Assembly (NCBI GenBank): GCA_022711335.1
Contig: JAKLFF010000002.1
Coordinates: 17,441 to 81,440 of the forward strand
DNA from: Patescibacteria group bacterium
GTDB lineage: Bacteria; Patescibacteriota; Minisyncoccia; Moranbacterales; UBA2206
Length of the DNA stretch: 64,000 bases
Reading direction: 5' to 3'
Shown here: positions 15,343-45,400 of the stretch, piece after piece
How the letters are laid out: each line of letters opens with the position of its first letter
Position numbering within the stretch: the first letter of the stretch is position 1
The notes under the pieces: generated by a model
The model's input: only the letters and a program-made list of their open reading frames with translations
The model's database searches: none
What the model was told of the DNA's origin: nothing
Translations under genes and position numbers: made by a program

Positions 15343-15419
15343 TGTCATTCCCGCGAAAGCGGGAATCCAGTGAAATAACTTTTTTTAGGAACTGGATTCC
15401 CATTTGCATGGGAATGACA
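15343..15419. mobile_element. 78-bp MITE-like element, copy a (terminal inverted repeat TGTCATTCCCG...CGGGAATGACA)
   Basis: Perfect terminal inverted repeats plus two internal hairpins (TCCCGCGAAAGCGGGA and TTCCCATTTGCATGGGAA). Confidence 0.8.
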
Positions 15420-15432
15420 TTAAAAAATTCTT

Positions 15433-17334
15433 ATGACGCATTTTCTCAAAAAAAATTACCGGGTAATAATCACTCTAATCCTTTGTTTCGTGGCAACCGT
15501 ATCCATTATCAACGCCTGGTGGGACAGCGCTATTTTCGACGAAACCGCCCACATTCCGGCCGGCTATACCTATATGCATTATTTTGACATGCGGCTCAAT
15601 CCCGAACACCCCCCGCTGATAAAAGATCTGGCCGGACTGCCCCTTCAGTTTATGGATCTTAAATTCGACACCAGCCAGGAATTTTGGACCGCATCCGTCG
15701 ACGGCCAATGGGACGCCGGCCGGTCATTCCTGTGGCACATGGGAAATGACGCTGACCGGATTATTTTCTGGTCGAGAATCCCAATTGTCCTGCTTTCGCT
15801 TTTCCTCGGCTGGTTTATCTTCCGCTGGGTTCGGGAAATTTCCGGAACCGTGGCCGGTCTTTTCGCTCTCACCATCTATGCCTTTGATCCCAATTTCCTT
15901 GGCCACAACCATTTTGTCACCACCGATATCGGCATCTGCGCTTTTATGGCTTTCTCTTTTTATTATTTCCTGCGCTTCATCAAAAATCCTTCGTGGAAAA
16001 ATGTGGTCATCGGCGGAATTTTTCTGGGGCTTGTCCAGCTAGCCAAATTCTCTTCTGTATTGCTGTTTCCCGTTTATGGATTAGTACTGATCATTTATCC
16101 CCTTGCCATATTGAAAACTGACAAAAGGGAAAGCAATCTGCTGTTTCGCGCAAGAAATGTCTGGCACTATCTGGAAAAAGGCATTGTCGCCGGATTCATT
16201 TCAATCGTCGTCGTCTGGATGCTTTATGCCGTAAACACTCTCAATATGCCGACTGAAAAACTGGCGGAAATTATTAATTATCAATTCAATCCAGCCAGTG
16301 AAATGGCTTCAGTAAAGATTGTCAATAAAGCTCTTTTGGCTCTCGACAGCAATAATCTGACCAAGCCATTGGCAGAATATTTTCTGGGAGTAGGAATGGT
16401 TTTCAAAAGAGTAGCCGGAGGAAACGGCGCCTATTTTATGGGACAAGTCAGCGCCAAAGCTTTTCCCGCCTATTTCCCAACTGTCTTTCTCATAAAAGAG
16501 CCTTTGGCTAATCTGTTTTTTATGCTGTCAGCACTGATCTTATCAATTGTTGGATTTGTTAAATTCTTGTCGTCTGAAACAAAAAACCGGTTCCAAAAAT
16601 TCTGGGAAAAAATTGCCAAGTATCTTCGGGAGAATATTACCAGCGTTTCGCTCTCCATGTTTATTTTCCTCTATTCCTATATGAGCATCACCGGAAATCT
16701 TAATATCGGATTTAGGCACCTTTTTCCCATTCTTCCGTTCGTTTATATTTTAACCGCCAAAGTTATTTTCGATTTTTGGAAAAAATTGCATTCCAGGCAG
16801 TCAGAATTGATCTTTGGAACAATTTTATCCGCTTTGGTTTTATTCCTGGTTTCCGGCACCGTCTCCGCCCATCCGGCTTATATGTCATATTTCAATGAGA
16901 CGGCAGGCGGACCAAAAAACGGATATAAATATGTGACCGATTCCAATGCCGATTGGGGACAGGACTTGAAGAGATTAAAAGTATGGATAAATGAATATAA
17001 TCAATGCAAAGGCAACTCTTTTAGTTCACATTGCAGCATATACAATTATGAAAGAGGGCCGATCGATAAGATCCGGCTTAACTATTTCGGCGGAGCGGAC
17101 ATCAAATATTATTTTGGAGAACAAGCCATTGACTGGTGGGATTCGCGCCGCCCCCTTGAACCCGGCTGGTATGCCATCGCGACCAATTATCTCCAAGGCA
17201 GCCTTTATGACAAAGAAAAAAAGGACAATGAGTCCTACAGGTGGATTCAAAATATCAAGCCCGTCGCGCAGGTGGGAACTTCAATTTTTGTGTATTACAT
17301 AACAGAAGAGGAAATCAAAAAAATTCAAAATTGA
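15433..17334 (+). CDS. GT39-family (PMT_2-like) membrane glycosyltransferase
   Basis: WWDSAIFDETAHIPAGYTY...NPEHPPL motif of phospholipid-carrier-dependent glycosyltransferases; many transmembrane helices. Confidence 0.7.
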   Translation: MTHFLKKNYRVIITLILCFVATVSIINAWWDSAIFDETAHIPAGYTYMHYFDMRLNPEHPPLIKDLAGLPLQFMDLKFDTSQEFWTASVDGQWDAGRSFLWHMGNDADRIIFWSRIPIVLLSLFLGWFIFRWVREISGTVAGLFALTIYAFDPNFLGHNHFVTTDIGICAFMAFSFYYFLRFIKNPSWKNVVIGGIFLGLVQLAKFSSVLLFPVYGLVLIIYPLAILKTDKRESNLLFRARNVWHYLEKGIVAGFISIVVVWMLYAVNTLNMPTEKLAEIINYQFNPASEMASVKIVNKALLALDSNNLTKPLAEYFLGVGMVFKRVAGGNGAYFMGQVSAKAFPAYFPTVFLIKEPLANLFFMLSALILSIVGFVKFLSSETKNRFQKFWEKIAKYLRENITSVSLSMFIFLYSYMSITGNLNIGFRHLFPILPFVYILTAKVIFDFWKKLHSRQSELIFGTILSALVLFLVSGTVSAHPAYMSYFNETAGGPKNGYKYVTDSNADWGQDLKRLKVWINEYNQCKGNSFSSHCSIYNYERGPIDKIRLNYFGGADIKYYFGEQAIDWWDSRRPLEPGWYAIATNYLQGSLYDKEKKDNESYRWIQNIKPVAQVGTSIFVYYITEEEIKKIQN

Positions 17335-17351
17335 AATTGAAAATTTAGAAA

Positions 17352-17429
17352 TGTCATCCCGGGCTTGACCCGGGATCCAGTGAAATAGTTAGTTTTTCCA
17401 ACTAGATTCCCGCTTTCGCGGGAATGACA
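17352..17429. mobile_element. 78-bp MITE-like element, copy b (inverted orientation)
   Basis: tgtcatcccgggcttgacccgggatccagtg...agattcccgctttcgcgggaatgaca. Confidence 0.8.
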
Positions 17430-17441
17430 ATCTTTTTGAAA

Positions 17442-18356
17442 CTAATTCTTTTTCTTCTTCCCTTTCTTATCCTCAACCTTCTTCTCTTCAGCTGACTGGC
17501 TGCTTTCATCTTTATTCACTTCTTCTTCCGTTCCCTCTTTGAATTTATAATAAACTTTGTTATCCGACCGGAGGTCCACATATTCTAAATCCTTTCTTTT
17601 TTCATTTCCCACTTTTTCATCAAGCACTATACGAAGCATATTGATTTCTTTTTGGAGATCGACATTCTGATTGAAAAATATCTTCCATCCTTCAGCCGTT
17701 ATTCCGCGGATATCATCCGACACTCGGCTGGGTGTTTCATATTCTTTCGCCATTTCGACATTCAGATTATCTCTTATTTTGTTCTCAATGTTCAAAATAT
17801 AATTCAGATACCCGGGGCTTAGGATTTCATCTCCCAACTTTATTGATTTTTCTCCGAAATCTCGAAGCGTGATCAGCCTGTTCTCCCTTATTTCCGGCCA
17901 GCTATAATCTTTTTCGCTATAAGCGGTTCCGTTTTTGTCGATAACGAAACAATTATCCCCATCGCAAAAAATCAGCGCTGATTCTTTCTCTTTAATCGAC
18001 ACCGAAAGCGCATTGGGAAATTTTTTTCTAACATCCGCGCTTTCTATCTTTTTGAACCTGTTTTTTAAATCTTTCTTTAAAAAACCGCTTCTCACAAGAA
18101 GCAAATTGTTTTTATCCAAAAATCCCAAATATTTGCCGCTTATATGGGAATTCACGACTTCCGCAACAGCCTCCCTGTCGAGCTCTTTGAGGCCGGAAAT
18201 GTCAGCTTGATTTATCGAAAGAAATCCGGCAAAAAAAAGCGCGTAGGCCATAACTCCCAAAAAAGACAGCAGTGCCATCCAATAAAAAAACCTTCCCCAA
18301 GTTATTCCGCTTTTCTTTTTCTCATGGATGGATATGATTTTTCTTTTTGTCGCCAT
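17442..18356 (-). CDS. FtsQ/DivIB-like cell-division protein (putative) with a Lys-rich C-terminal tail
   Basis: N-terminal transmembrane helix followed by a POTRA-like region (INQADISGLKELDREAVAEVV). Confidence 0.4.
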   Translation of the reverse strand: MATKRKIISIHEKKKSGITWGRFFYWMALLSFLGVMAYALFFAGFLSINQADISGLKELDREAVAEVVNSHISGKYLGFLDKNNLLLVRSGFLKKDLKNRFKKIESADVRKKFPNALSVSIKEKESALIFCDGDNCFVIDKNGTAYSEKDYSWPEIRENRLITLRDFGEKSIKLGDEILSPGYLNYILNIENKIRDNLNVEMAKEYETPSRVSDDIRGITAEGWKIFFNQNVDLQKEINMLRIVLDEKVGNEKRKDLEYVDLRSDNKVYYKFKEGTEEEVNKDESSQSAEEKKVEDKKGKKKKN

Positions 18357-18368
18357 AATAAGGACAAG

Positions 18369-19247
18369 CTAAAAGTCCATAAATAAATTTTCCAAAACCA
18401 GCCTGGGATTAGAATTGGTTTCGCGCATAATTTCAACGCTTTTTTGAGTTTGTTCCAAAAATTTGAATATCTTTTCCGAAGGGCAGGAAAACATTTTTTT
18501 TCGCCCGATTAGATTTTCTCTCAAAAGAACAACCCACCAGCCGAGTTTTTCCATTAAAGCCGAAGAATCCTTGCTCATTTTTTCAGCCAAGGAAAATCTT
18601 TCAGAAATATTTGAAGCAGGCAGTCCGGCCAGCTCCTTTTCGGCTTCTCTCCGGCTTTCCAATTCTTTTGGATTTTCCAAAAGCGCCTTTGCCAGCCCCG
18701 GACGCCCCAATGACCAAAAAATTATTTCTTCGCCATTTTCTAAATTAGCTGGCAATATTTTTCTTATCTCTCTTTCCGAAACCGGACTGAATTTTTTCAA
18801 AACGCACCGCGATATTATTGTCGGCAGAATTTTATTAAGATTTGCGGCAATAAGGATTATTGCCACTTTTTCCGCCGGCTCTTCCAGAATTTTAAGCATG
18901 GCATTTTGAGCAGATTTGTTCATCCTGTCAGCATCATCTACTATCGCTATTTTATATTTTCCAAAATGCGAAGTCATTCTAAGCTGGTGCTGCAATTCTC
19001 TTATTTTCTCTATTTTTATTTCCTTTTTTCTGATAATTCCCTTGCTTTCATCCGTATCCGGCCCTATCACGATTATATCCGGATTAACTTCCCTGCTGTT
19101 TCCGGCCAGCCTCTCGGCAAAACCAAGCGCTACGCCGAACTTGCCCAGATGCTGAGGCCCGGCAAAAATATACGCGTGAGAAACAGCGCCTCTTTCAATG
19201 CTTCTAAGTAAAATTTTTTGTATTTTTTGATGGCCAACGATATTCAT
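18369..19247 (-). CDS. holB: DNA polymerase III subunit delta-prime
   Basis: HAYIFAGPQHLGK ... KIAIVDDADRMNKSAQNAMLKILEEP clamp-loader motifs. The start is probably MNIVGHQ, and the ORF could extend to 19268. Confidence 0.8.
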   Translation of the reverse strand: MNIVGHQKIQKILLRSIERGAVSHAYIFAGPQHLGKFGVALGFAERLAGNSREVNPDIIVIGPDTDESKGIIRKKEIKIEKIRELQHQLRMTSHFGKYKIAIVDDADRMNKSAQNAMLKILEEPAEKVAIILIAANLNKILPTIISRCVLKKFSPVSEREIRKILPANLENGEEIIFWSLGRPGLAKALLENPKELESRREAEKELAGLPASNISERFSLAEKMSKDSSALMEKLGWWVVLLRENLIGRKKMFSCPSEKIFKFLEQTQKSVEIMRETNSNPRLVLENLFMDF

Positions 19248-19321
19248 GGAACATGGAACATACAGCATACAACATAAGAAAAAATAGCGGTTTGTGCCGA
19301 ATATGCTACATGTTGTATGTT

Positions 19322-20452
19322 TTATGCTATGTGATTAATATATTCTTCCAATTCCCTCTTAAACCTCTCTTTGCTAAACTCCTGCGCTTTATTGATTATC
19401 ACCTGCCTGTCATATTCTTTTTCTTTTTCCATAAACCTCCGGATGCAGTCCGCAACGACTTCAGCAGTTTGCGCGCCAAAAAATTCCCCGGTAATTCCTT
19501 CAGAAACTATCTCCTTTGCTCCGCCTTTTCGGATAGCCAAAACCGGCACGCCATGCATCATAGCTTCAACTGGCGCTATTCCAAAATCATCAACGGTTGG
19601 AAAAATAAAAGCGCGCGCGTTCTCATAATATTTAGAAATTTTTTCATCCGGAAGCCAGCCCAGAAATCTGATGTTTTTGTTCGCAATCGATTCCAGATGT
19701 TTTCGCTCTCCTCCCTCACCGATAATAATCAGCGGCAATTCCAGCTTATTAAAAGCTTCGATAACACAGTTTATTCTTTTATAAGCCGACAGCCGTGAAA
19801 CAATCAGAAAATAACCTTCTTTTTTCCCCTTCTCCCCTTGGGAGAAGGTGCCCGAAGGGCGGATGAGGGACAAACTGCCTACCGGAGGATATATTGCAAT
19901 ACTCTTTCTTCGATAATACTTCTCAATCCTATCTTTTGTATATTTCGAATTAGCAATCAAATAGTCCGGCCGATCCGCCGCTGATTTGTCCCAGATGCGA
20001 AGATAGGTAAGAAGCGGGCGGATAAAAAAATTTAATTTCTCCTTTCTATTTTCAGCCAAATATTTTTCGCTATAATCCCAAACAAACCGCATCGGGCTAT
20101 GGATATAAGCTATATGCTTAGTGTTAAGCTTAGTTACTATCCCCTTGCTCCAAGCTCCCGATGAAGAAATTATCAGATCATAATCGCGAAGATCGAATGT
20201 TTCCGGAGCCACCGGAAAAAGAGGCAAAAGCCAGCGGTATCTTTTTCTCAAAAACTTAGGGAATTTTTGGAGGAAAGAAGTGTGAATTTGACGGTTTTCA
20301 AACTTTCCTCGCATTTTTTCCCTGTCATGAAGCAAAGTATAGATTGGAGCATCCGGAAACATCTCCGCCATCACTTCCAAAACCCTCTCCGCCCCGCCAT
20401 ATTGGATGAGAAAATCATGGACTAAAGCTACTTTTAAGTTTTTTTTAAGCAT
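19322..20452 (-). CDS. GT4 (group 1) glycosyltransferase carrying an in-frame GC-rich repeat insertion
   Basis: FLIVSRL...GW LPDE...FIFPT... EGFG-like C-terminal GT-B domain. The peptide SLSLIRPSGTFSQGEKG is encoded by repeat 19824..19869. Confidence 0.8.
   Translation of the reverse strand: MLKKNLKVALVHDFLIQYGGAERVLEVMAEMFPDAPIYTLLHDREKMRGKFENRQIHTSFLQKFPKFLRKRYRWLLPLFPVAPETFDLRDYDLIISSSGAWSKGIVTKLNTKHIAYIHSPMRFVWDYSEKYLAENRKEKLNFFIRPLLTYLRIWDKSAADRPDYLIANSKYTKDRIEKYYRRKSIAIYPPVGSLSLIRPSGTFSQGEKGKKEGYFLIVSRLSAYKRINCVIEAFNKLELPLIIIGEGGERKHLESIANKNIRFLGWLPDEKISKYYENARAFIFPTVDDFGIAPVEAMMHGVPVLAIRKGGAKEIVSEGITGEFFGAQTAEVVADCIRRFMEKEKEYDRQVIINKAQEFSKERFKRELEEYINHIA
19824..19869. repeat. GC-rich palindromic element inserted in-frame inside the GT4 gene
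   Basis: ccccttctccccttgggagaaggtgcccgaagggcggatgaggga. Confidence 0.85.
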
Positions 20453-20625
20453 AGTGTTCCGATTTTCATTTTTTCAACGATTTTTTAAGTTTAATAAGAT
20501 TAATGATATATTGTATGCATAATCTCAGCAGTAGTTAATATTATACTAAAAGTTCATACAACCCACAACTTTTCGTCATTATAATATATCACCAAACTAA
20601 GTTCACATATAAACTAGTTATAGCG

Positions 20626-20656
20626 AAAAAATCACAGCTTCCTGTGATTTTTTTTG
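20626..20656 (-). terminator. bidirectional rho-independent terminator
   Basis: AAAAAATCACAG-CTTC-CTGTGATTTTTTTT, just downstream of the stop of 20674..21801. Confidence 0.7.
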
Positions 20657-20673
20657 TTTAAGCATTGTATTTA

Positions 20674-22928: not shown

Positions 22929-23342
22929 TTATTTAATCAAATCTAAATTACCATTAACTATGATTGGCTTAACTGCTTCTATTTCCGTTTTACAATATGG
23001 CATATCGGGAATAGGATTTAACATAAATATTTTCTGGTTAAGGACGTGCGCAAAACCGATTTCCATTAAAGTATTTCCGCCCACATAGTTTTTTATGCCA
23101 TTTTTATCTAAATTCAAAACCAATACCGCATCTGCCCCTTGCATAGTATTCCAGAATTCCCGAATCGCATCCATATTGTATTTTTGATGAAGCTTTATTT
23201 TTTCAATTTCCTCATCGCTCTTTCCGATCATCGCTTTATGTAGATCTGTCACGAAAGCCTCATGTCCTAATGCATTTAATTTATCTCGGTATTCCAACAT
23301 CTTATCAGTAAACTGCATTGAACCAATAATTCCTATTTTCAT
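22929..23342 (-). CDS. hypothetical Rossmann-like protein (possibly nucleoside 2-deoxyribosyltransferase-like)
   Basis: 137 aa. MKIGIIGSMQF...ADAVLVLNLD...GGNTLMEIGFA shows only weak family resemblance. Confidence 0.3.
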   Translation of the reverse strand: MKIGIIGSMQFTDKMLEYRDKLNALGHEAFVTDLHKAMIGKSDEEIEKIKLHQKYNMDAIREFWNTMQGADAVLVLNLDKNGIKNYVGGNTLMEIGFAHVLNQKIFMLNPIPDMPYCKTEIEAVKPIIVNGNLDLIK

Positions 23343-23347
23343 ATATT

Positions 23348-23426
23348 TGTCATTCCCGCGAAAGCGGGAATCTAGTGCAAAGGTTTAAGATACCAAACTG
23401 GATCCCGGGTCAAGCCCGGGATGACA
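23348..23426. mobile_element. 78-bp MITE-like element, copy c
   Basis: tgtcattcccgcgaaagcgggaatctagtg...ctggatcccgggtcaagcccgggatgaca. Confidence 0.8.
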
Positions 23427-23602
23427 ATTACTTAACTTTTTTATCTCCATAATGACTCAGTTCTTCATTATTCGTTCCCTTCATTTTAAACTTCATGTGG
23501 AATTTTTTCGTAGCATTATAATATTCTCTCATTTTGTCATTAGATATTTTGTTGGAAATTAGGAATTGGAAATTGGAAATTTGGACAGTAACTTAAAAAC
23601 AT

Positions 23603-29706: not shown

Positions 29707-29829
29707 AATTCTCGGCACTGACTTACTCTTCCTCTGAAAAAAACAGAGATACCATCAGCGCTGACAGGCTTAACGACTGAGTTCGGGATGGGATCAGGTG
29801 TGACCCTGTCGCTAGAAGCACCGAGAATT
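29707..29829 (-). rRNA. rrf: 5S ribosomal RNA
   Basis: Minus-strand sequence GGTGCTTCTAGCGACAGGGTCACACCTGATCCCATCCCGAACTCAGTCGTTAAGCC...GCTGATGGTA... matches the bacterial 5S core. Helix I closes between 29811..29829 and 29707..29724. Confidence 0.7.
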
Positions 29830-30394
29830 ATAGAAACAAAATGGCAGAAATGAAGGGATGCTTGTCCACCTCTGGCGGAGGATCGGGCCCGCCAAAGACG
29901 GGTAAATGTTTCCACTTCGCTAGAACCGCCAAAATAATGCTTTTTACCCTATTGAATAAAATTTTGCCTCCGGTAAAATTTAATTTTTCCTTCGGAAAAA
30001 TTATTCAACAGGTTAAATTAAAATGCGTTTATCACAGGCGAAAAGAACATAAACGATACAACCGTAAACATAATTACGAAAAATATCGTAAAAATAAATC
30101 GAAAACTTTTTTTATATTTGTCGTATCTTTTCATATCTTTTTACATTATACCATTAATTGCAACCAACTACAACTTTCTTAGAAACTGCTAACTGCTAAC
30201 CTCCGACGCTCCGGCCAAAGCCGGAGGTCGGAGCTCCGAACCACTAATGAGTTCAAAAACTCATTAGTGCGTCGGAGCATATTTTTAAGAGAGATAATGT
30301 TTAGTTTATTAGTATCTCTTGGCTCAATGAATCTCTCCACTTACACCTGAGACCTATCAACCTGGTAATCTTCCAGGAAACCAGCCAATGCAAA

Positions 30395-30592
30395 GCATTG
30401 GAAGCACGAAATCCAAAATTAGAAATCCGAAACAAATTCAAATTTTAAAATCACAATTTTCAAAACATTAATAGGAATTAGTTTTGTCAGCCAGAGGCTG
30501 ATCCGCCTTTGGCGGAAATTTTGAAAATTATAATTTTGATATTGTTTAGAATTTCGAAATTCGAATTTCGAATTTCCAGTGCTTCGCACTGG
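30395..30592. repeat. IVS family B, copy 2 (helix-98 region near the 23S 3' end)
   Basis: Begins gcattggaagcacgaaatccaaaattagaaatccgaaacaaattcaaat and ends ...gaatttcgaatttccagtgcttcgcactg. Related to 33900..34070. Confidence 0.7.
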
Positions 30593-30794
30593 CGTTGCCT
30601 TATCTTGGGCGGGGCTTCCCGCTTATATGCTTTCAGCGGTTATCCCTTCCGAACGTAGCTACCCAGCAGTGCTCCTGGCGGAACAGCTGGTACACCAGAG
30701 GTTCGTTCTTCAAGGTCCTCTCGTACTATCGAAGACTTCCCTCAAGCAACAACGCCTACAGCAGATAGGAGACCAACCTGTCTCACGCATGTTT

Positions 30795-31180
30795 TTCACT
30801 TATTACTAAGTGCATTGGACTATAACTTCATCCAAAAAAATATGGATGGCTAACATTTAGTCTCTACGGGCAATTACAAACTTCAAAGAAGGGAGGAGAG
30901 AGTCTCCATTGGGAGGGCAGAAAAACCCTAAGCCATTCGGCTTTCAAAATGGACGATGCCAGGAGCCATTCGGCTAATTCCTGGAGTTCATCTTTCGCTC
31001 TCCTCTTTAAAGTTCATAATTTTCCCTCGGTATTGTCCTTTCTCAGGATTCTACCGAAATTAGTTAGCTTCACTATTAATATTACTATTAATAGCCGCCG
31101 TGTTTTTGATGTCTTATTCCTCGGATTCAAACTGTTAAATTTCCTTTATCTAAAAGCTAAAAAGCTAATAACTAAAAGCT
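30795..31180 (-). mobile_element. ORF-less group I intron-like insertion at the 23S position equivalent to E. coli ~2593
   Basis: Interrupts the conserved GGGTTCA|GAACGTCGTGAGACAG. Contains the P7-like motif GTAGAGACTAAATG (reverse complement at 30845..30858). Confidence 0.5.
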
Positions 31181-31231
31181 GTTTAACGGTTTGAACCCAG
31201 CTCGCGTACCGCTTTAATTGGCGAACAGCCA

Positions 31232-31291
<60 letters not shown>

Positions 31292-31317
31292 CTCCGTCGA
31301 TGTGGACTCTTGGGAGG

Positions 31318-31350
<33 letters not shown>

Positions 31351-31511
31351 TGATGATCTTCCACGCTCCTATGAGCGATGGTCGGTTCACTAACTTCCAC
31401 TTTCGTGACTGATCGACTAATGAGTCTTGCAGTAAAGCAGGCTTATGCGTTTGCACTACCGGCCCGATTTCCATCCGGACCTAGCCTACCTTTGTAAACG
31501 CCTCCGTTGCC

Positions 31512-31544
<33 letters not shown>

Positions 31545-31945
31545 ACCAGGCACTGTCCCCGAACTGGATAAGAAGAAAGAAGTATGAAGTAAGAATCAAG
31601 AAGAATATGCAAAAATTTTTCTTTAGAAAAATTTTTGGCTTATCTCTTTCTTCTTTATTCTTTCTTCTTAACAGTTCAGGGTTAGCGTTTAAACTCACAA
31701 AGAGTGGTATTACACTGTTGGCTCCATCTCGACCGAAATCGAGACTTCAAAGCCTCCCACCTATTCTAGGCATCATAAACTCAAACGCAATGCCAAGCTA
31801 TAGTAAAGCTCCACGGGGTCTTTTCGTCTTGCTGCAGGTCGACGGCATCTTTACCGTCATTGCAATTTCACCGAGTTCTTCGTTAAGACAGTTACCAAGT
31901 CGTTACGCCTTTAATGCGGGTCAGAATTTACCTGACAAGGAATTT

Positions 31946-32555
31946 CGCTCTTTTTTGTTAACTCTTGATCGCTCAAGAGAACGGACTATATTTTTTCGCC
32001 TTATTAGCGAATTCGGCATTTAGTCTCTGAGGATTCTAAAAATCTAGAAGATTTTCTATGATTCATTTTCTCAATCATTTTTGCAATTTTTTTCATTCCA
32101 CTTAATTTCGAATGTTCATTCTCATTCATCATTGCCACTATTTTTGCAAAAATTTTAAAATCTTCTTTTTTGGCCGTTTTCAATCGGTTTTTATCAAAGA
32201 ACGGGATTATTATTTCAGTCAAATCTTTTTTAGATCTTACGCAATAACGATATAAATTCTCGTTGTGATTATCATATCGTTTATTCACGAAAACTTTTCC
32301 ACATTTGAAAAATTTTAATAAAATTTCAAGTGATTTTTTACTTTTTTCGCCTTGCGTTACTACAAATTCCGGAAAAACTTGCCATCCAAATTTTGTAGTT
32401 TTGTTTCTAAAAAGACTAACCGAGAAACATCCTTCTCCATCAACATAACCAATTATCCAACCAATCATTTTTAGTCTTTCCTGCTGATTGTCTGGTTTTT
32501 CAAATTTACCTTGAAAAACACTGGAAACATTTTTACTGGGCATAACTTTTTATTA
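31946..32555 (-). mobile_element. group I intron in 23S (near E. coli position 1931) encoding a LAGLIDADG endonuclease
   Basis: Interrupts ...TAAGGTA|GCGAAATTCCTTGTC. Carries the Tetrahymena-like P7 motif CAGAGACTAAATG (reverse complement at 32021..32037). Confidence 0.6.
32004..32543 (-). CDS. LAGLIDADG homing endonuclease (intron-encoded)
   Basis: GYVDGEGCF matches the LAGLIDADG motif. The 179-aa ORF lies wholly inside the 23S locus. Confidence 0.75.
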   Translation of the reverse strand: MPSKNVSSVFQGKFEKPDNQQERLKMIGWIIGYVDGEGCFSVSLFRNKTTKFGWQVFPEFVVTQGEKSKKSLEILLKFFKCGKVFVNKRYDNHNENLYRYCVRSKKDLTEIIIPFFDKNRLKTAKKEDFKIFAKIVAMMNENEHSKLSGMKKIAKMIEKMNHRKSSRFLESSETKCRIR

Positions 32556-33005
32556 AATAATCTATGGAATAATTATACCATAGTAGCTCCAGATTCACCA
32601 GATTTTCCAGCATATAGCTGAATGTTTTAAGACATACTATTTTAATAGTATAGGCAGTTACTTTTCCTTTTTCTTAATTTGCCGTTTACCAATCTTCACA
32701 CCATGCAATCGTTCCAGTCTTGAGACTACCTTGCAAGATAATCTCAACCTTAGAACGATTCATAATGTATGTGTTAGCTCTATGTCTCCATAGAGATCGG
32801 ACTATATCATCTTCGATCTTTATATCGAAGTTTGGCGTGTAGTCTCTGAGGATTCTGCCAAAATAGTTGGCAGCCTTTCCTGCTGATTGTCTAATCCGAT
32901 AATTTTTTAAAACCACTCAGCTTATCCTTGCGGATTACTGTTTGGGTATTATCGGCTCTAAAGAGTTTCCAGCATTTGGCCAAATTTTTTAACTACAATC
33001 GTTAC
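32556..33005 (-). mobile_element. second, degenerate group I intron (near E. coli position 1917) with a remnant ORF at 32686..32916
   Basis: Follows the exon sequence ...GCGATAACTATAA. Shares the 17-mer tagtctctgaggattct (P7 region) with the neighbouring intron. Only a 76-aa ORF without LAGLIDADG motifs remains. Confidence 0.4.
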
Positions 33006-33305
33006 TTTATAGTTATCGCTGACGTTCACTGGCGCTTCGGGGATTGGCTTGCACCGCTCCCGTTAACGTTCCAGCACTGGTCAGGCGTCACCCCCCATAC
33101 TTCCCCTTGCGGGTTTGCGGAGAGCTGTGTTTTTGATAAACAGTCGCTTGGTATCTTTCGCTGCGGCCCCCGCCGAGGCGGGGGCAGTCCATATCCCTAA
33201 GTTACGGACGCTGTTTTGCCGAGTTCCTTAACGAAGGTTCACTCGTTCACCTTAGGCTACTCGCCCAGTCTACCTGTGTCGGTTTTAGTACGGATTCTGT
33301 CAGAT

Positions 33306-33497
33306 CCTGTGTCTCGCGCTGCTCGCCACAGGGAATTTACAATTTTCAATTTACAATTTACAATCAATTTTCAATTTAATAATTTTTAATTTTCAAACCA
33401 ACTTGTAATTGATAATTGAAAATTGAATCATTGAAAATTTATTGATCATTGATAATTGATCATTGAAAATTCCGTGTCGAACAAAGTGAGACACGGG
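33306..33497. repeat. IVS family A, copy 1 (192 bp, inserted near 23S nt ~1600)
   Basis: Identical over 192 bp to 34685..34876. Closed by the helix CCGTGTCTC / GAGACACGG around an AT-rich body. Confidence 0.9.
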
Positions 33498-33899
33498 CAT
33501 AGAGGGTTTTCCCGGCACCTTGCTCATCTCCCTTTTCTGTCCGAAGACAAATTCGAGAAATATCTTGAATGATATGCGGCGGATTTTCCTGCCACACGTT
33601 CTCAATATTCCTACGAAAATCCAATAATTCGCAGAGACTACTAAGATGCGTCACCTCATTTATAAACTGACAAAAGCTATGGAATATTAACCATATGTCC
33701 ATCGACTACGCCTTTCGGCCTCGCCTTAGGCCCGGCTAACCCTGGGATGATCACCATTGCCCAGGAAACCTTAGACTTTCGGTGTCGGGGGATCTCACCC
33801 CAATTGCGGTTACTCGTTCCAGCATTCTTACTTCCATACACTCCAGCCTGGCTCGCGCCTTGACCTTCAGTGCGTATGGAACACTTCCCTACCAGACAA

Positions 33900-34070
33900 T
33901 GCTACGCATTGGAAGCACGAAATCCAAAATTAGAAATCCGAAACAAATTCAAATACTTAAATTCAAATGTCCAAAACAAGTTGTTTTAAATTTTGAAATT
34001 ATAATTTTTTAATATTGTTTCGAATTTCGATATTCGAATTTCGAATTTCCAGTGCGAAGCACTGAATCCG
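33900..34070. repeat. IVS family B, copy 1 (helix 45 of 23S)
   Basis: Replaces the helix-45 loop between GTGCCGAAGATGCGG and GTCTGGTAGGG. Ends in the hairpin cagtgcGAAGcactg. Confidence 0.7.
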
Positions 34071-34684
34071 CATCTTCGGCACTATGTTTCAGCCCCGTTA
34101 CATTTTAGGCGCAAAGCCTCTAGACTAGTGAGCTGTTACGCACTCTTTAAAGGATGGCTGCTTCTAAGCCAACCTCCTAGGTGTATAAGAAGCCTTACTT
34201 CCTTTTCCACTTAACATAGATTTTGGGACCTTAGATGGCGGTCTGGGCTTTTTCCCTTTTGAGATCCGACCTTAGCGCCGGATTTCTGACTGTCCGAATA
34301 AGTAGCTTTGGAATTCGGAGTTTGGTTGAAAACCCTACGGCGAACCGCGAATTCTCATTCAGTAGCTCTACCTCCAAAGCACATTTAACGAACGCTAGCC
34401 CTCAAGCTATTTCGGGAAGAACCAGCTATCGCCAAGCTCGATTACAATTTCTGCTCTATTCACAAGTCATCCCCCAGTGTTGTACGGCTGGTGGGTTCGG
34501 GCCTCCTTTGGGTTTTACCCCAAATTCACCCTGCTCATAAATAGCTCGCCTGGCTTCGGGTCTAGTCCATGCCATATAATCGCCCGTTAAGGCTCGCTTT
34601 CACTTTGGCTCCACAATAAAAATTGCTTAGCCTACGACATAGAACTAACTCGCTGGATCGTTCTACAAAAAGCACGCCATCACC

Positions 34685-34876
34685 CCTGTGTCTCGCGCTG
34701 CTCGCCACAGGGAATTTACAATTTTCAATTTACAATTTACAATCAATTTTCAATTTAATAATTTTTAATTTTCAAACCAACTTGTAATTGATAATTGAAA
34801 ATTGAATCATTGAAAATTTATTGATCATTGATAATTGATCATTGAAAATTCCGTGTCGAACAAAGTGAGACACGGG
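34685..34876. repeat. IVS family A, copy 2 (helix 25 of 23S)
   Basis: Identical to 33306..33497. The flanks align to E. coli CTGAAACCGTGTACGTACAAGCAGTGGGAGC, which is helix 25. Confidence 0.9.
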
Positions 34877-35267
34877 AGCTCTGACTCTTTGTTAGCATAC
34901 GGTTTCAGATACTATTTCATCCCCCTCATCGGGGTGCTTTTCACCTTTCCCTCACGGTACTGGTTCGCTATCGATCACTAAAAATATTTAGCCTTGGAAG
35001 ATAGTGCTCCCATCTTCAAACGGGATTTCTCCGGTCCCGCCCTACTTGTTTTGAGACTTAGTTCCACGGATCCATTTTCGCTTACGGGGCTTTCACCCTC
35101 TATAGCCGTTCTTTCCAGAAACGTTTGGCTAATAGAACCGCTAAAGACTCAAGGCTTTTCCGCGTTCGCTCGCCACTACTTGCGGAATCTCAGTTGATTT
35201 CTTTTCCTCCGGCTAATAAGATGTTTCAATTCGCCGGGTGTGCTTCATCACACTATGAATTCATGTG

Positions 35268-35452
35268 AAGATAATCCATTCTTCACTTTATCCAGAATCT
35301 TGCTAATTAAAATAGCCCGCAAATTTTTAATTTTTTAATTTTTAAATAATGCTCAAATTTCTAATGTTTAAAAATTAAAGCATTAAAAAAATTATTTACA
35401 AAATTAAAAATTATAAAATTTAAAAATTCTATTCTGAACGAAGTGAAGAATG
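35268..35452. repeat. IVS in helix 9 of 23S
   Basis: About 150-bp AT-rich insert bounded by the inverted repeat ATCCATTCTTCACTT / AAGTGAAGAATGGAT, between TTTCCGAATGGG and GAACTGAAACATCT equivalents. Confidence 0.75.
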
Positions 35453-36067
35453 GATTGGGTTTTCCCATTCGGAAATCTCCGGGTCAAAGGTTGCTCGTCA
35501 CCTCGCCGAAGCTTATCGCAGACTGCTACGCCCTTCATCGCTTTTTAGTGTCAAGGCATCCACCATATGCATTAGTATTACCGCTCTTACATCACGAAGC
35601 ATATAACATACAACATACAACAATTACGCATAGCACTAAATATTGTTTCGTTTTTTATGTTACATGTTTTATGCTATATGCTTCATGATTTTTAGTTAGC
35701 AGTTAGCAATCACTAATGTCGCCAACTGCGTTTTTCGCGCGGCCGCCGGTAAAGCGGTTTTACGCGATTGCAATTTCTATCCCGCCGCTCGCAAGCGGCA
35801 GAATGACCTACTTTCTAATGCTTCGTTGCAAAAAGCATTAGAAGACTAATCGCCGATATCAATTTTAGTTTCCGCAAACTCTAATTAACTTGAGTATCGC
35901 GATTAAGACCGTATTCAATTGTCAAGGTTCGCCCTAGCCGCGCGGCCGCCGTTGAGGCGGTTTTACGCGGTAACGCGGAAATACATTGATACTACTTTCT
36001 ATCAAGTAATATTAAACTATTTCTTCGCTACCCATTCGTTATTCATATAAATTCACAGTTCGCAACA

Positions 36068-41877: not shown

Positions 41878-41931
41878 AAATTCGAAATTCGAATATCGTA
41901 CTTCGAATTTTTAATGAACAGTACTAAAAAA

Positions 41932-42303
41932 TTAATTTCTTGATAAAAAGTATAGCTCGATTAAAAACACAGCAGCTACCGCCAGTAACCCATCCCACCA
42001 AACCAGCATTCTGAAACTCTGAAAAATAAGGAGGATTATCGCCAAAACAGAAAGGAGAATGGATTGCCTGAAACTTAACCCCATATTCGCCAAAGCCGCT
42101 TCTGAACCCATAATTTTCCGCCGGGTAAAAATCAAGAACAAGTTTAACGTTCCCGACAAGAAAAAAAATAGCACGGAATAAAAAATCACTTTTCCAAAAA
42201 ATCCGGATTTTTCAGGATCCACATGGAAAACAACAAACCCCAGCGCTGATAGGGAAATAAATGTTAAAAACCTAATTCCCCAAACATAGGATTTCAGCGT
42301 CAT
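41932..42303 (-). CDS. hypothetical small membrane protein
   Basis: 123 aa after trimming the ORF so it no longer overlaps tRNA-Asp. Three to four transmembrane helices. Confidence 0.4.
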   Translation of the reverse strand: MTLKSYVWGIRFLTFISLSALGFVVFHVDPEKSGFFGKVIFYSVLFFFLSGTLNLFLIFTRRKIMGSEAALANMGLSFRQSILLSVLAIILLIFQSFRMLVWWDGLLAVAAVFLIELYFLSRN

Positions 42304-42378
42304 AGAAAAAATTTCCTTTTTAGGGATTACTCTTGTAATTTTACTCCTTTTCTGTTTCTTTGGCAAGCATCTTTGGCA

Positions 42379-42405
42379 CAAAAAAACAGCCGATTTCAGG
42401 GCTGT
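42379..42405 (-). terminator. rho-independent terminator downstream of the tRNA-Asp / tRNA-Met pair
   Basis: On the minus strand, the hairpin ACAGCC-CTGAAATC-GGCTGT is followed by TTTTTTT. Confidence 0.6.
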
Positions 42406-42451
42406 TTTATGCGAATGGCGGACTGGACGAGACTCGACTTTCTGTATTGTG

Positions 42452-42525
42452 CGGGGACGGCCGGACTCGAACCGGTGACCTACTGCGTGACAGGCAGTCG
42501 CTCTAACCAACTGAGCTACGCCCCC
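42452..42525 (-). tRNA. tRNA-Asp (anticodon GTC)
   Basis: GGGGGCGTAGCTCAGTTGGTTAGAGCGACTGCCTGTCACGCAGTAGGTCACCGGTTCGAGTCCGGCCGTCCCCG folds as a cloverleaf with anticodon loop CTGTCAC. Confidence 0.8.
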
Positions 42526-42541
42526 ATAATTATATTTTCTG

Positions 42542-42617
42542 TAGCAGGGGTGGGGCTCGAACCCACGAACCTCAGGTTTATGATACCCGCGCTCTAACCA
42601 ACTGAGCTACCCTGCCC
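42542..42617 (-). tRNA. tRNA-Met, elongator type (anticodon CAT; Ile-lysidine not excluded)
   Basis: GGCAGGGTAGCTCAGTTGGTTAGAGCGCGGGTATCATAAACCTGAGGTTCGTGGGTTCGAGCCCCACCCCTGCTA. Anticodon loop ATCATAA. The 1:72 pair is a normal G-U. Confidence 0.75.
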
Positions 42618-42872
42618 TAATAAAAAATTTTTTAATTGCTTCTTTAAATATTTCCTTCCGGAACCACTTTTTAAAAATTTCTCTCTTTCTAAGGCGTCCG
42701 CCTTGTTTCTATATCCTTCAAAATAAATCAATCGCCAGTGTTTTTTCTGCCGAGTTGTCCTGCCCCCTTTCCCATCATTATGATCTTTTATTCTCTGGTT
42801 CAGATCGCTAGTAAAACCTATATACCAACCCTTATCTAATGCATTCCTTATGAGGTATACATAATAGAACAT
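42594..42872 (-). CDS. GIY-YIG nuclease family small protein
   Basis: YYVYLIRNALDKGWYIGFTSDLNQRIKDHN matches the GIY-YIG core. Its last 8 codons overlap the 5' end of tRNA-Met. Confidence 0.7.
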   Translation of the reverse strand: MFYYVYLIRNALDKGWYIGFTSDLNQRIKDHNDGKGGRTTRQKKHWRLIYFEGYRNKADALEREKFLKSGSGRKYLKKQLKNFLLGQGSSVG

Positions 42873-43026
42873 GTTTTTCATTCTTGCTAGTGGCAAGCCC
42901 TATTTCTTATACTAGGCTGTGCCACGAGATCATGAGCGTTCACCGAAAACAGTGCAGGTCGCGTAAAATCGACTATCGTCGATCACGCGACTCACTCAAA
43001 ATCATTCGTAAGCTCATGATTTTTCG

Positions 43027-43103
43027 TGGTTGCGGGGCCGGGATTTGAACCCGGGACCTCGTGGTTATGAGCCACGCGAGCTGCCAGACTGCTCCACCCC
43101 GCG
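43027..43103 (-). tRNA. initiator tRNA-fMet (anticodon CAT, C1-A72 mismatch, CCA encoded)
   Basis: CGCGGGGTGGAGCAGTCTGGCAGCTCGCGTGGCTCATAACCACGAGGTCCCGGGTTCAAATCCCGGCCCCGCAACCA. The unpaired C1:A72 is the bacterial initiator hallmark. Confidence 0.8.
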
Positions 43104-43317
43104 ATAATATTAATTTTTTGTTTTGCTAATCTCCGCCCATATTGTTTACGCGAGTTACCAGCCTGTCCGCCCTTAGAGGAACTGCCTGCCACGTGATAAA
43201 ACGAAGTTTTATTTTACGTGGCTCCACCCCGCGATGATGATTTGAAAAAGACTATTCCCAATTCTAAACTGGCAGACAGCCATTGTCAAACAGCGGCTCT
43301 CGTCCCAAAATATTTTG

Positions 43318-43851
43318 CTATTCCAAAACCTCGAAATATCTCAAAAATTCCTCGAAAAGAGAAAATACTTCTTCAGCCTCTTCTTTGCTTAGCCTAAAGC
43401 CGTCCTCATGAATTATCCTGTTCCTGATTTCATGGGCGCGCTTTAGCTTCTCAATGTTATCCATCTGTCCGAAAGGAATGTTATCCAGCCGCTCCGCCAT
43501 ATTTTCGCCGGCATAGCCAAGTCTTCGAATAAGGCCATGAATCACTTCGTCAGCTTCGATAACGGCCACCTTATAGGCTCTCTCTTCTCCCGAGTACAAT
43601 TTTGATTTTATCTTCTCCCATTTTTTCCTAAGCTTCAGCTTCCCGCCCTTGCTTGCCAACTCCCGAGGCATATCGATTCCAAGGGAAGTTTCCCTGACGT
43701 TTCCGGAAAGACCTCTTTGCATAAGAAGCAAAATTATATCGACAAGCAAGACTATTACATAAATTCCGATGATAAATTTCAAAACAGAAAAAAAGGATGA
43801 GTTATAAAAATTCAAAACAAACTGCGGGAAATTTAATATGAAATTATCCAT
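43318..43851 (-). CDS. membrane-anchored protein with a C-terminal HEPN-like helical domain (putative)
   Basis: N-terminal transmembrane helix. The C-terminal region carries the Rx4H motif RNRIIHE in an all-helical context. This is inference only. Confidence 0.35.
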   Translation of the reverse strand: MDNFILNFPQFVLNFYNSSFFSVLKFIIGIYVIVLLVDIILLLMQRGLSGNVRETSLGIDMPRELASKGGKLKLRKKWEKIKSKLYSGEERAYKVAVIEADEVIHGLIRRLGYAGENMAERLDNIPFGQMDNIEKLKRAHEIRNRIIHEDGFRLSKEEAEEVFSLFEEFLRYFEVLE

Positions 43852-43860
43852 TTTGATTGT

Positions 43861-45318
43861 TTATTTTTTTTCATAGGCATCGGCAACTCGAAGCAAATTT
43901 TCTTCATCAAACCATTTTCCCATCAGCTGGAATCCGATGGGCAACTCTTTTTTGCCTTCCTTTATTCTACCACAAGGAACGGATATTGCCGGTATGCCGG
44001 CAATGTTAGCCGTAACCGTGAAGATGTCTTCAAGATACATTTTGAGCGGATCTTCCGTTTTTTCCCCCAGCCTAAAAGCCGGCGAAGGGGTTGTCGGAGT
44101 TAAAATCATGTCTGCCTCTTTAAAAGCTTTTTCAAAATCTTTTTTTATAAGAGTCCTCGCTTTTTGCGCGCGGAGATAATAAGCTTCATAATATCCGGAA
44201 CTCAAAGCATAAGTCCCCAGCATTATTCTTCTTTTAGTTTCTCTTCCAAGGCCATATTGCCTTGTGTCAAAATATGTTTCCAGGAGAGTTTTTGGAAGAT
44301 CAGACGAATTTCCGGAAATTGCTGAATTATCCCCATCATCAATCCTAAGTCCGTATTTAATCCCATCATATCTGGCCAAATTGGAACTCACTTCGCATGG
44401 CTGGATTATATAATAAGCAGGAAGAGCATATTTAACATGAGGCAACTCTGTTTCTATTATCTTCGCGCCCTCCTTTTTATAAAACTCGATTACTTTTTCA
44501 ATTTTTTCCCTGACATTTTTTTCAAGACTGTTAAGATATTCCTTAACAACGCCAATTTTCGTTCCCCTGACTTCGCCAGTAAGAAATTCTTCATAGTTTT
44601 TGTCCTGGCTGTGAGCTGATGTCGCATCATGCTTATCTCGTCCGGAAATAGCGCTGAGCACTATGGCTGCATCCTCAACGGTTTTGGCAATCGGTCCGAC
44701 TTGGTCGAGACTTGATGCCATAGCGATTATTCCGTGGCGAGAAACCCGGCCATAGGTCGGTTTCATTCCGACAACTCCGCAAAAAGCCGCTGGCTGGCGA
44801 ATTGATCCGCCTGTATCGGTTCCCAGCGCCCATGAAGCTAAATCCGCCGCTACGGCCGCAGTTGAACCTCCAGAAGTTCCTCCAGGAACACGATTCAAAT
44901 CATGCGGGTTTTTTGTCGGTCCATAGGCGCTATTCTCCGTGGATGATCCCATGGCAAATTCGTCGAGGTTGGTTTTTCCAAGAATCACTGCTCCTTTTTC
45001 ATTTAATTTATCGATAACAGTCGCGTTGTACGGAGCGATATAACTGTCCAAAATTTTTGAAGCTGCCGTTGCTCTTATTCCATTTATGCAAATATTATCT
45101 TTGATCGCTCCCGGGATTCCTTCAAGAAGTCCTATTTTTTCTCCTTTTTTTATTTTTTCATCCGCTTTTTTTGCCTGCTCCAGCGCTAAATCTTTTGTAA
45201 GAGTGAGGTAAGAAAAAATATCCTTGTCCTTTTTGGAAATACGATCGAAATAATCCAGAGTTAATTGTTCTGACGTTATTTCCTTGTTTATTAATTTATT
45301 ATGTAAATCTTTTATCAT
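43861..45318 (-). CDS. gatA: Asp-tRNA(Asn)/Glu-tRNA(Gln) amidotransferase subunit A
   Basis: Amidase signature GGSSGGSAAAVAADLAS; 485 aa. Confidence 0.9.
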   Translation of the reverse strand: MIKDLHNKLINKEITSEQLTLDYFDRISKKDKDIFSYLTLTKDLALEQAKKADEKIKKGEKIGLLEGIPGAIKDNICINGIRATAASKILDSYIAPYNATVIDKLNEKGAVILGKTNLDEFAMGSSTENSAYGPTKNPHDLNRVPGGTSGGSTAAVAADLASWALGTDTGGSIRQPAAFCGVVGMKPTYGRVSRHGIIAMASSLDQVGPIAKTVEDAAIVLSAISGRDKHDATSAHSQDKNYEEFLTGEVRGTKIGVVKEYLNSLEKNVREKIEKVIEFYKKEGAKIIETELPHVKYALPAYYIIQPCEVSSNLARYDGIKYGLRIDDGDNSAISGNSSDLPKTLLETYFDTRQYGLGRETKRRIMLGTYALSSGYYEAYYLRAQKARTLIKKDFEKAFKEADMILTPTTPSPAFRLGEKTEDPLKMYLEDIFTVTANIAGIPAISVPCGRIKEGKKELPIGFQLMGKWFDEENLLRVADAYEKK

Positions 45319-45322
45319 TTAT

Positions 45323-45400
45323 TGTCATTCCCGCGAAAGCGGGAATCTAGTCAATTAACCAAAACTGTTTGCTGGATTCCCGATCAGGTCGGGAATGACA
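45323..45400. mobile_element. 78-bp MITE-like element, copy d (in the gatC-gatA intergenic gap)
   Basis: tgtcattcccgcgaaagcgggaatctagtc...ctggattcccgatcaggtcgggaatgaca. Confidence 0.8.

Follow-up and report, generated by a model that had tools for sequence, protein, structure and literature searches.

The four short repeats of 77-79 bp carried by the window (the whole 64-kb stretch of DNA that was analysed) are in all likelihood head-to-head dimers of CGTC-type REP sequences, the hairpins also described as NTS/SRM, which are bound by the nuclease Ssn and which are present here as lineage-specific insertions in a member of the Moranbacteria. Repeats of this class and the nuclease associated with them have already been published, and their range is now extended to a Patescibacteria (Moranbacteria) genome, in which the 27 nt employed in Neisseria recur.

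Anatomy and location of the elements

Each element consists of two inverted hairpin units of about 28 nt arranged around an unconserved spacer of about 20 bp. The units share a common plan, in which a TGTC tag (8/8 units) is followed by a perfect 8-bp stem starting with AT (8/8 units), a loop of 4-5 nt, and a CCA or CTA tail. The stem is ATTCCCGC, ATCCCGGG, ATTCCCAT or ATTCCCGA, the loop is GAAA in four units, CTTGA in two, and GCAA and CCTGA in one each, and the 3' tail is CCA in five units and CTA in three. The two units face each other head to head in all four pairs. An earlier note on this DNA had placed four copies of a MITE-like element at the same coordinates and described all of them as intergenic, and both statements agree with the present analysis:

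15343..15419: dimer 1, head-to-head, unit A, 21-nt spacer, unit C; between both GT39 genes, 21 nt past the stop at 15321 and 13 nt ahead of the ATG at 15433
15343-15370: unit A of dimer 1, forward, TGTCATTCCCGCGAAAGCGGGAATCCAG
15392-15419: unit C of dimer 1, reverse, stem ATTCCCAT, loop GCAA
17352..17429: dimer 2, head-to-head, unit B (TGTCATCCCGGGCTTGACCCGGGATCCAG, forward), spacer, unit A (reverse); between the convergent stops of the second GT39 gene (17334) and a POTRA-domain gene (17442)
23348..23426: dimer 3, head-to-head, unit A (forward), spacer, unit B (reverse); begins 5 nt upstream of the ATG (23342) of a 137-aa gene on the minus strand
45323..45400: dimer 4, head-to-head, unit A (forward), spacer, unit D (reverse; stem ATTCCCGA, loop CCTGA); fills the gap from gatC (stop 45402-45404) to gatA (ATG 45318), minus strand

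The window holds no other copy. A scan with the hairpin unit returned eight units, every one inside the four elements, and revealed no solo, half or decayed units in the window. The one extra hit of this hairpin scan, at 31500, was discarded as spurious, its position falling within the 23S rRNA. A scan with the core pattern gave five exact matches plus one unrelated match with two mismatches (expected 0.19). The spacers of the four copies are barely alike and cannot be aligned beyond chance. According to computed folding, dimer 1 as ssDNA reaches -20.7 kcal/mol (z = -6.0), and dimer 2 forms two separate hairpins (z = -6.4).

The previous parsing of the element into terminal inverted repeat, hairpin, core, hairpin and terminal inverted repeat was mistaken, as there are two self-contained inverted units and a spacer. 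The distance of 2-15 bp to a start or stop codon given at that time is approximate, with measured values of 21/13, 17/12, 5 and 1/4 nt for copies 1 to 4. The description of the last copy as filling the whole space between gatC and gatA is accurate, since this gap spans 45319-45401 (83 bp) and dimer 4 leaves just 1 nt and 4 nt of it. Dimer 4 is identical in four loci (L001-L004), and because four independent assemblies share it between gatC and gatA, it is not an assembly artefact.

Correspondence with CGTC REPs, NTS/SRM and the nuclease Ssn

CGTC REPs have been defined by an unpaired 5' tag CGTC (TGTC or CCTC being allowed), a stem of 8-9 bp opening with A-T and T-A pairs, a loop of 4 nt in CGTC-1 and of 5 nt in CGTC-2 to -4, a short unpaired 3' tail near CCA, and a predominance of head-to-head dimers (Di Nocera 2013, PMC3733652). 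All these defining features (tag, stem, loop, tail and head-to-head pairing) are found in the units of the window. As in the window, heterodimers of CGTC-1 and CGTC-2 are common and their location is intergenic (Di Nocera et al. 2013), and these two families include the ends of the Rickettsia RPE as well as repeats from Neisseria, Coxiella and alpha-proteobacteria (PMC3733652). That survey covered five phyla, Patescibacteria not being among them, found no transposase associated with the repeat class, and concluded that a dedicated enzyme was absent, the link to GIY-YIG proteins having come later (PMC3733652).

This link was established for the NTS/SRM motifs, which extend the dRS3 repeat of Neisseria (Chenal et al. 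2025, Nat Commun 16:2388, PMC11893778). The Neisseria NTS, CGTCATTCCCGCGMAVGCGGGAATCYRG, and unit A of the window, TGTCATTCCCGCGAAAGCGGGAATCYAG, are nearly identical. Four units match this consensus at 27 of 28 positions, with T instead of C at base 1, so that strict matches are zero. The published SRM search sequence, HGTCWYN(0-2)YYVSBRHN(0-5)WNVSBRGN(0-2)RNCYNB (Chenal 2025, PMC11893778), is matched by 6/8 units, while 0.09 matches are expected per Markov-1 random window. The two units outside the strict pattern come from dimers 1 and 4, where each is the partner of unit A, and they hold GCAA and CCTGA loops on stems containing A/T. Hairpins with oriented unpaired flanks are common to both sets, and a gene for a GIY-YIG protein of about 95 aa is enclosed by the same units in other genomes. 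In contrast, the host here belongs to the Patescibacteria (CPR), a group absent from PMC11893778, and all the units of the window are found in tight head-to-head dimers, not in clusters around genes.

Ssn proteins are small single-domain GIY-YIG ssDNA nucleases (cd10448) that bind NTS/SRM hairpins when the DNA is single-stranded (PMC11893778). Biochemical work on the enzymes of Neisseria and Wolbachia has demonstrated that only one of the two strand orientations is bound and that the cut falls a few nucleotides 5' of the motif (PMC11893778). RNA is not a substrate of Ssn (PMC11893778). In Neisseria, this cutting lowers transformation by NTS-bearing DNA (PMC11893778).

The association between units and nuclease was re-derived independently here, and it is the published Ssn/SRM association, not a new one. 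An exact 25-mer of the repeat was found in at least 119 stretches of genomes that represent well over ten phyla, mostly as part of inverted dimers that are 59-150 bp long and whose spacers are specific to the host. When 4,893 ORFs from 119 of these loci were clustered all against all, the sole small protein family recurring beside the units was GIY-YIG (PF01541), and no transposase, RAYT or IS110 cluster was found among them. Conversely, in 80 metagenome loci picked by GIY-YIG similarity alone, a unit lies upstream of the gene in 59/80, downstream in 67/80 and on both sides in 51/80, over a background density of 59 units in 249 kb. With the published SRM regular expression, the same 80 loci gave 43 upstream, 52 downstream and 31 on both sides. 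The two flanks carry the same stem variant in 16/26 canonical pairs (4.9 expected). Unit-bracketed genes of this kind are also present in Sinorhizobium meliloti, Azospirillum lipoferum, Rhizobium, Sphingobium, N. aromaticivorans and Aeromonas, the evidence from isolates being drawn from complete replicons in PLSDB (chromids, megaplasmids and chromosome-sized records). A search of solved structures returned only distant UPF0213 structural-genomics entries (1zg2 and 1ywl).

Unlike in those loci, no ssn or other GIY-YIG gene was detected by tblastn in the 64-kb window, nor within 10 kb beyond either end, that is, in the 84 kb examined. A protein search using as query the Ssn from a locus with identical units yielded names from Planctomycetes and Bacteroidales and none from Patescibacteria. 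The sites of the window may thus be orphans, without ssn, a condition reported for 19% of SRM-rich genomes (PMC11893778). Dependence on Ssn would gain support from an ssn gene in this organism with TGTCATTCCCGCGAAAGCGGGAATC at its flanks.

Empty orthologous sites and alternative explanations

In syntenic relatives with 72-84% protein identity, three of the four junctions are empty. The gap at these three junctions measures from -4 to 15 bp in the relatives versus 83-111 bp in the window, and gatC and gatA overlap by 4 bp in the relatives. These empty orthologous junctions show that the elements of the window are lineage-specific insertions, made into short AT-rich intergenic spacers. Filled sites can be set cleanly against empty orthologous ones, and in one case the insertion has split the translationally coupled genes gatC and gatA. 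One relative (L207/L209) has palindromic repeats of other kinds at the same three junctions, as would be expected either if permissive sites receive insertions repeatedly or if selection favours some hairpin at these places.

According to another proposal, the elements are primarily regulatory RNA or DNA elements of the host selected in place, acting as intercistronic mRNA hairpins, bidirectional terminators or sRNAs. In favor of it, and together with the palindromes of that relative, all four elements lie in transcribed intergenic spacers, copy 2 is located between convergent genes with T-rich flanks, and a unit ends 4-5 nt ahead of an ATG in copies 3 and 4. Moreover, two Rfam covariance models, WsnRNA46 (RF02625) and FtrB (RF02748), align end to end with the dimers of the window. 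However, these matches score 25.5-34.4 bits against gathering scores of 65.3 and 66, and being so far below them, they indicate that the dimers are not members of either family. For annotation, these sub-threshold matches suggest that repeats of this kind, in Wolbachia and Francisella, are probably what both Rfam 'sRNA' families describe. In addition, close relatives are functional although their genes overlap or abut at these sites, the element shows strand symmetry, an identical 25-mer appears in unrelated contexts across phyla, and Ssn is inactive on RNA (PMC11893778). A primarily regulatory role is considered unlikely, and any effect of the dimers on RNA is more likely a by-product.

The reading of the elements as mobile, already proposed in the earlier note, stands as far as a small non-autonomous insertion-like repeat is concerned, given the empty orthologous junctions and the gene-carrying versions in other genomes, but not as regards the MITE label. 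A classical MITE would derive by deletion from an IS with a DDE transposase and would depend on its terminal inverted repeats for mobilisation in trans. The elements are indeed short, palindromic, multi-copy and intergenic, and orthologous sites without them exist in relatives, but no target-site duplication is visible at any copy, and the flanks of the four show neither conserved, shared nor duplicated bases. The perfect 11-bp terminal inverted repeats described previously hold for copy 4 alone. The match drops to 10 bp in copy 1 and to 6 bp in copies 2 and 3, whose ends have in common only TGTCAT/ATGACA because their terminal units are different hairpin types. What had been taken for terminal repeats corresponds to the outer arms of a pair of independent hairpins, which vary between copies, and the internal sequence (core) also differs between copies. 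Conservation resides in a hairpin of 28 nt, found in identical form across phyla, and not in a terminal inverted repeat. As for the transposase with matching ends whose search had been suggested, no transposase was found in the 84 kb examined. The unbiased clustering around the 119 occurrences gave no transposase family, in agreement with Di Nocera et al. (PMC3733652), the associated protein being an ssDNA nuclease of the GIY-YIG type. This explanation, already disfavoured and regarded as very improbable, would need an IS in the genome with TGTCATTCCCG ends that generates duplications.

Hardly any credence is given to the reading of the elements as a REPIN that owes its mobility to a RAYT, a tyrosine transposase of the IS200/IS605 type, as is the case for the REPs with a GTAG tag. 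The geometry of two inverted REP hairpins around a spacer is shared, as is the presence, in other genomes, of one small gene enclosed by the same hairpins. Nevertheless, the tag is YGTC (TGTC in the window) and not GTAG, the bracketed gene encodes a GIY-YIG protein (PF01541) and not a Y1_Tnp, the ORFs around the 119 occurrences include no RAYT cluster, and, according to the literature, CGTC units never flank a RAYT gene (PMC3733652).

Proposed spread of the dimers

As Ssn-binding CGTC REP dimers, the elements of the window would represent gene-less counterparts of the SRM-ssn-SRM cassettes of other genomes. Each strand of a head-to-head dimer would present one forward motif at its 5' end, and cuts are therefore predicted just outside both ends of the dimer, on opposite strands. 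By analogy with REPIN/RAYT (Bertels and Rainey 2011), whose enzyme also acts on hairpins in ssDNA, the dimers probably spread as whole units in dependence on Ssn acting on ssDNA hairpins. The two systems differ in the fold and chemistry of the enzyme, the RAYT being an HUH tyrosine transposase with a covalent intermediate, whereas GIY-YIG proteins are hydrolytic nucleases. Near-identical dimers, spacer included, at separate places in other genomes (L043, L024 and L121) support the dimer as the copied unit. On the other side, the spacers of the copies in the window are too dissimilar to show a recent whole-dimer copy-and-paste within this genome, no target-site duplication is visible, and a nuclease devoid of strand-transfer chemistry offers no obvious route to new insertions. 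Should the organism possess an Ssn, incoming or exposed ssDNA would be cut at these sites, as happens in Neisseria. As a side effect, a stable hairpin would form in the gatC-gatA and GT39 transcripts.

A bolder proposal, judged rather doubtful, is that the dimers are active non-autonomous elements copied whole by an enzyme that is nothing but a nuclease (Ssn, GIY-YIG). In DNA-scavenging Patescibacteria, the Ssn/SRM pair might further gate the uptake or recombination of ssDNA. If the dimers are copied in this way, there would be a route of transposition or homing that uses neither transposase nor recombinase chemistry, and the filled and empty gatC/gatA and GT39 junctions among close Moranbacteria would be a record of recent events. 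Related metagenome genomes with polymorphic sites are natural material for working out how SRM/CGTC repeats multiply.

The elements also account for spurious ORFs in the annotation. Those starting with (M)SFPRKRES, which had been called artefactual, were located at 15342 and 45322 and are read-throughs of the unit. An identification with the Coxiella QMITE, prompted by the 23S rRNA, was dropped, as synteny and protein names point to Moranbacteria. The 23S rRNA of the window carries two group I introns.

Anatomy of the four elements

The earlier note described four copies of a 78-bp MITE-like element; sequence inspection bears out its coordinates for all of them.

Elements of the window and the units that compose them
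15343-15419: element 1
17352-17429: element 2
23348-23426: element 3
45323-45400: element 4
Unit A: TGTCATTCCCGCGAAAGCGGGAATCYAG; one per element, in all four
Unit B: ATCCCGGG, CTTGA; partner of unit A in two elements
Unit C: stem ATTCCCAT, loop GCAA; partner of unit A in one element
Unit D: ATTCCCGA, CCTGA; partner of unit A in one element

Each element is built of two inverted units flanking a spacer of ~20 nt, and each unit runs from TGTC through an 8-bp stem starting with AT, its loop and the return stem to a tail of CCA or CTA. A scan for GTCAT followed by a perfect hairpin returned exactly eight units, all within the four elements, and the pattern GTCATTCCC-N8-GGGAAT gave five exact matches in the window plus one unrelated match with two mismatches, versus 0.19 expected. 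A looser hairpin scan of the window revealed no solo, half or decayed units, its single additional match being a spurious one within the 23S rRNA. Since the partner of unit A differs among elements, the perfect 11-bp terminal inverted repeat previously attributed to all copies is confined to copy 4; copy 1 has 10 bp, and the ends of copies 2 and 3 share no more than TGTCAT/ATGACA. Neither spacers nor flanks are conserved among the four copies. The ORFs starting (M)SFPRKRES are, as had been supposed, artefactual, being read-throughs of unit A.

Computed folding shows that the elements are able to form the hairpins as single strands, and they fold far better than shuffled sequences (z = -4.9 to -6.4). 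Dimers 2 and 3 form two separate small hairpins each, while dimers 1 and 4 form one long hairpin at about equal energy; this comparison across the four dimers identifies the small hairpin as the conserved structural unit.

Repeat class and the associated nuclease

These elements are dimers of a known repeat class, here in a Moranbacteria genome. The identity in class of their units is shown by a point-by-point match to the CGTC-tagged REPs, which comprises a CGTC or TGTC tag, an 8-9-bp stem starting with AT, a 4- or 5-nt loop, a CCA tail and head-to-head dimers (Di Nocera et al. 2013). That class takes in repeats of Rickettsia, Neisseria and Coxiella, and was said in 2013 to be without a dedicated enzyme (Di Nocera et al. 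2013). The same repeats have been described as recognition motifs (SRMs) of Ssn, a small single-domain GIY-YIG nuclease (Chenal et al. 2025, PMC11893778). SsnA, a 94-aa protein of family cd10448, binds its motif in a single orientation and solely on ssDNA, cutting a few nt upstream of it; it ignores dsDNA and RNA, and in N. meningitidis it lowers transformation by DNA bearing the Neisseria motif NTS (PMC11893778). The study defines both NTS (CGTCATTCCCGCGMAVGCGGGAATCYRG), an extension of dRS3, and a degenerate SRM motif, which is found near 71% of ssnA homologs and on both sides of 42%; of the genomes that carry over 200 SRMs, 81% encode Ssn, and the NTS-ssnA-NTS layout resembles an insertion sequence and parallels REP/RAYT (PMC11893778). 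The SRM pattern is matched by six of the eight window units (0.09 expected), and four of the eight agree with the NTS consensus at 27 of 28 positions. Patescibacteria are not mentioned in that study, whereas the window units lie in a Moranbacteria genome.

The exact 25-mer of unit A is present in at least 119 stretches of species-representative genomes. Among the matches listed, the hosts include Patescibacteria, Omnitrophota, Planctomycetota, Chloroflexota, Bacteroidota, Acidobacteriota, Ignavibacteria, several proteobacterial classes and one Rickettsia endosymbiont. Inverted dimers of 59-150 bp are the usual form in these listed loci, with spacers that follow the host in composition; near-identical dimers, spacer included, recur at separate places within a genome in L043, L024 and L121. 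When all ORFs in the 119 listed loci were clustered without bias, no transposase family emerged; a ~95-aa GIY-YIG protein (PF01541), encoded directly between inverted units, formed the sole recurrent family of small proteins.

When 80 metagenome loci were picked solely by likeness to this protein, the hairpin scan placed a unit within 150 bp upstream in 59, within 150 bp downstream in 67 and on both sides in 51, over a background of 59 units in 249 kb; the published SRM pattern gave 43, 52 and 31, respectively. In the usual cassette, the forward unit ends ~25 nt 5' of the gene and the reverse unit lies ~18 nt 3' of it, and in 16 of 26 canonical pairs the two flanking units have identical stem variants (random re-pairing would give 4.9). 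Among cultured isolates, complete replicons in PLSDB (chromids, megaplasmids and records of chromosome size) likewise carry the gene between units, in S. meliloti, Rhizobium, A. lipoferum, Sphingobium, N. aromaticivorans and Aeromonas. This association is already published, and the present result is an independent re-derivation rather than a discovery. No ssn gene is present in the 64-kb window or in the 10 kb beyond each end, and the protein search for Ssn relatives returned no Patescibacteria names.

Several further arrangements were observed. In plasmid AZO_p3 of Azospirillum lipoferum 4B (L212, 255118-256178), an ssn-type gene flanked on both sides by complete SRM dimers lies between sufB and sufC, another insertion within a housekeeping operon. 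At L048 5789-5921 and L090 2540-3050, units are arrayed in tandem, one array, in an Ignavibacterium MAG, having a period of 36 bp and the other, in a different MAG, repeating whole dimers every 124 bp. Arrays of 5' half-units (GTCATTCCCGC plus 9-20 nt, 2-7 repeats), none of which is found in the window, lie directly outside complete SRM units in several phyla (L049 2400-2500, L037, L075, L121, L122, L163, L173, L201, L214 and L207 7720-7945). On predicted viral IMG/VR contigs (L223-L280, e.g., L228/L249), the exact 25-mer occurs in 24 stretches and about 26 close Ssn relatives are encoded, both together on one contig; these contigs could be vehicles of inter-phylum spread or mis-binned host DNA.

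Filled and empty junctions in relatives

The window has a G+C content of 41% and shares its gene order with a Paceibacteria contig, and the nearest named homologs of its GT39 protein and GatA are from Candidatus Moranbacteria/Moraniibacteriota. Its 5.3-kb 23S rRNA gene (30288-35585, minus strand; two group I introns, 30796-31118 and 32778-33018) has no adjacent 16S, which fits a Patescibacteria genome; the 5S rRNA lies at 29710-29825. Several assemblies from ENA, JGI and NCBI, GCA_035453105.1 among them, also represent the species, and the gatC-gatA dimer is identical in all four independent assemblies checked.

Comparison with syntenic relatives covered three junctions, site 23348 having only a distant relative.

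Intergenic gaps at the three junctions (amino acid identity in brackets)
GT39 #1 / GT39 #2: window 111 bp; L204 (84%) 4 bp; L205 (78%) 15 bp; P0008 contig (72%) 4 bp
GT39 #2 / POTRA gene: window 107 bp; L204 -4 bp; L205 3 bp; P0008 contig 6 bp
gatC / gatA: window 83 bp; L208 (82%) and P0123 contig (83%) 4-bp overlap (ATGA)

These gaps show that the elements are insertions relative to the syntenic relatives; none of the 7-14 kb seen of each of L204, L205 and L208 contains such units. With the element taken out, the window gatC-gatA junction reads ctgTAAg|ataaATG. The chief worth of the elements lies in these cleanly distinguished filled and empty sites, on which the spread of such repeats can be studied.

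At each of these three junctions, another Moranbacteria relative (L207/L209, 79-80% amino acid identity) has palindromic repeats of other kinds, including two long-stem CGTC-like variants, so these positions are either permissive or favoured.

Repeats at these junctions in L207/L209
L207 7712-8000: long-stem CGTC-like hairpin, half-unit arrays and an assembly gap
L207 9948-10045: unrelated ~95-bp palindrome
L209 1345-1500: long-stem CGTC-like dimer in gatC-gatA

Elsewhere in this relative (L209 3560-4100), a 101-aa GIY-YIG gene of a different subfamily adjoins a tRNA-Met gene, preceded by an incomplete copy of the 5' part of the tRNA containing a TCCCGCTAAGCGGGA hairpin and followed by a LAGLIDADG ORF, which looks like a separate homing-type insertion.

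Alternative readings and proposed working

The earlier observation is real, with some details overstated, and its MITE reading holds in spirit, for a small, non-autonomous, insertion-like repeat, but not in class, which is that of an SRM/CGTC-REP dimer. A MITE of the DDE type is disfavoured by the absence of a transposase family among the ORFs of the 119 listed loci, by a core that is not conserved and by the lack of target-site duplication, a feature that the note had proposed looking for, at the four copies. A REPIN of the RAYT type is likewise disfavoured, since both tag and enzyme are wrong. As a secondary role, the elements may act as a selected RNA element: two units end 4-5 nt 5' of an ATG, convergent genes flank one dimer, and at 15323-15442, 17327-17450 and 23326-23446 the dimers give full-length alignments to the Rfam families WsnRNA46 (Wolbachia) and FtrB (Francisella). 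Those matches are weak, however (25-34 bits, far below the gathering scores), the element is symmetric with respect to its two strands, and the relatives function without the elements. These two 'sRNA' families were probably built on the same repeat class.

For the SRM/CGTC-REP dimers of this organism, recognition of the motif on ssDNA and cutting 5' of it by Ssn are carried over from the literature. A head-to-head dimer would present one forward motif per strand, at the 5' end of that strand, and cuts would therefore fall just outside both dimer ends, on opposite strands. The copied unit would be the whole dimer, and its spread would depend on Ssn. The sites may also affect incoming or exposed ssDNA; a tie to the type IV pilus/T2SS-like genes encoded in the window is speculation. 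Beside those genes lies a 131-aa protein with 23S_rRNA_IVP / bAvd Pfam matches (52627-53022, minus strand; L219 20948-21343).
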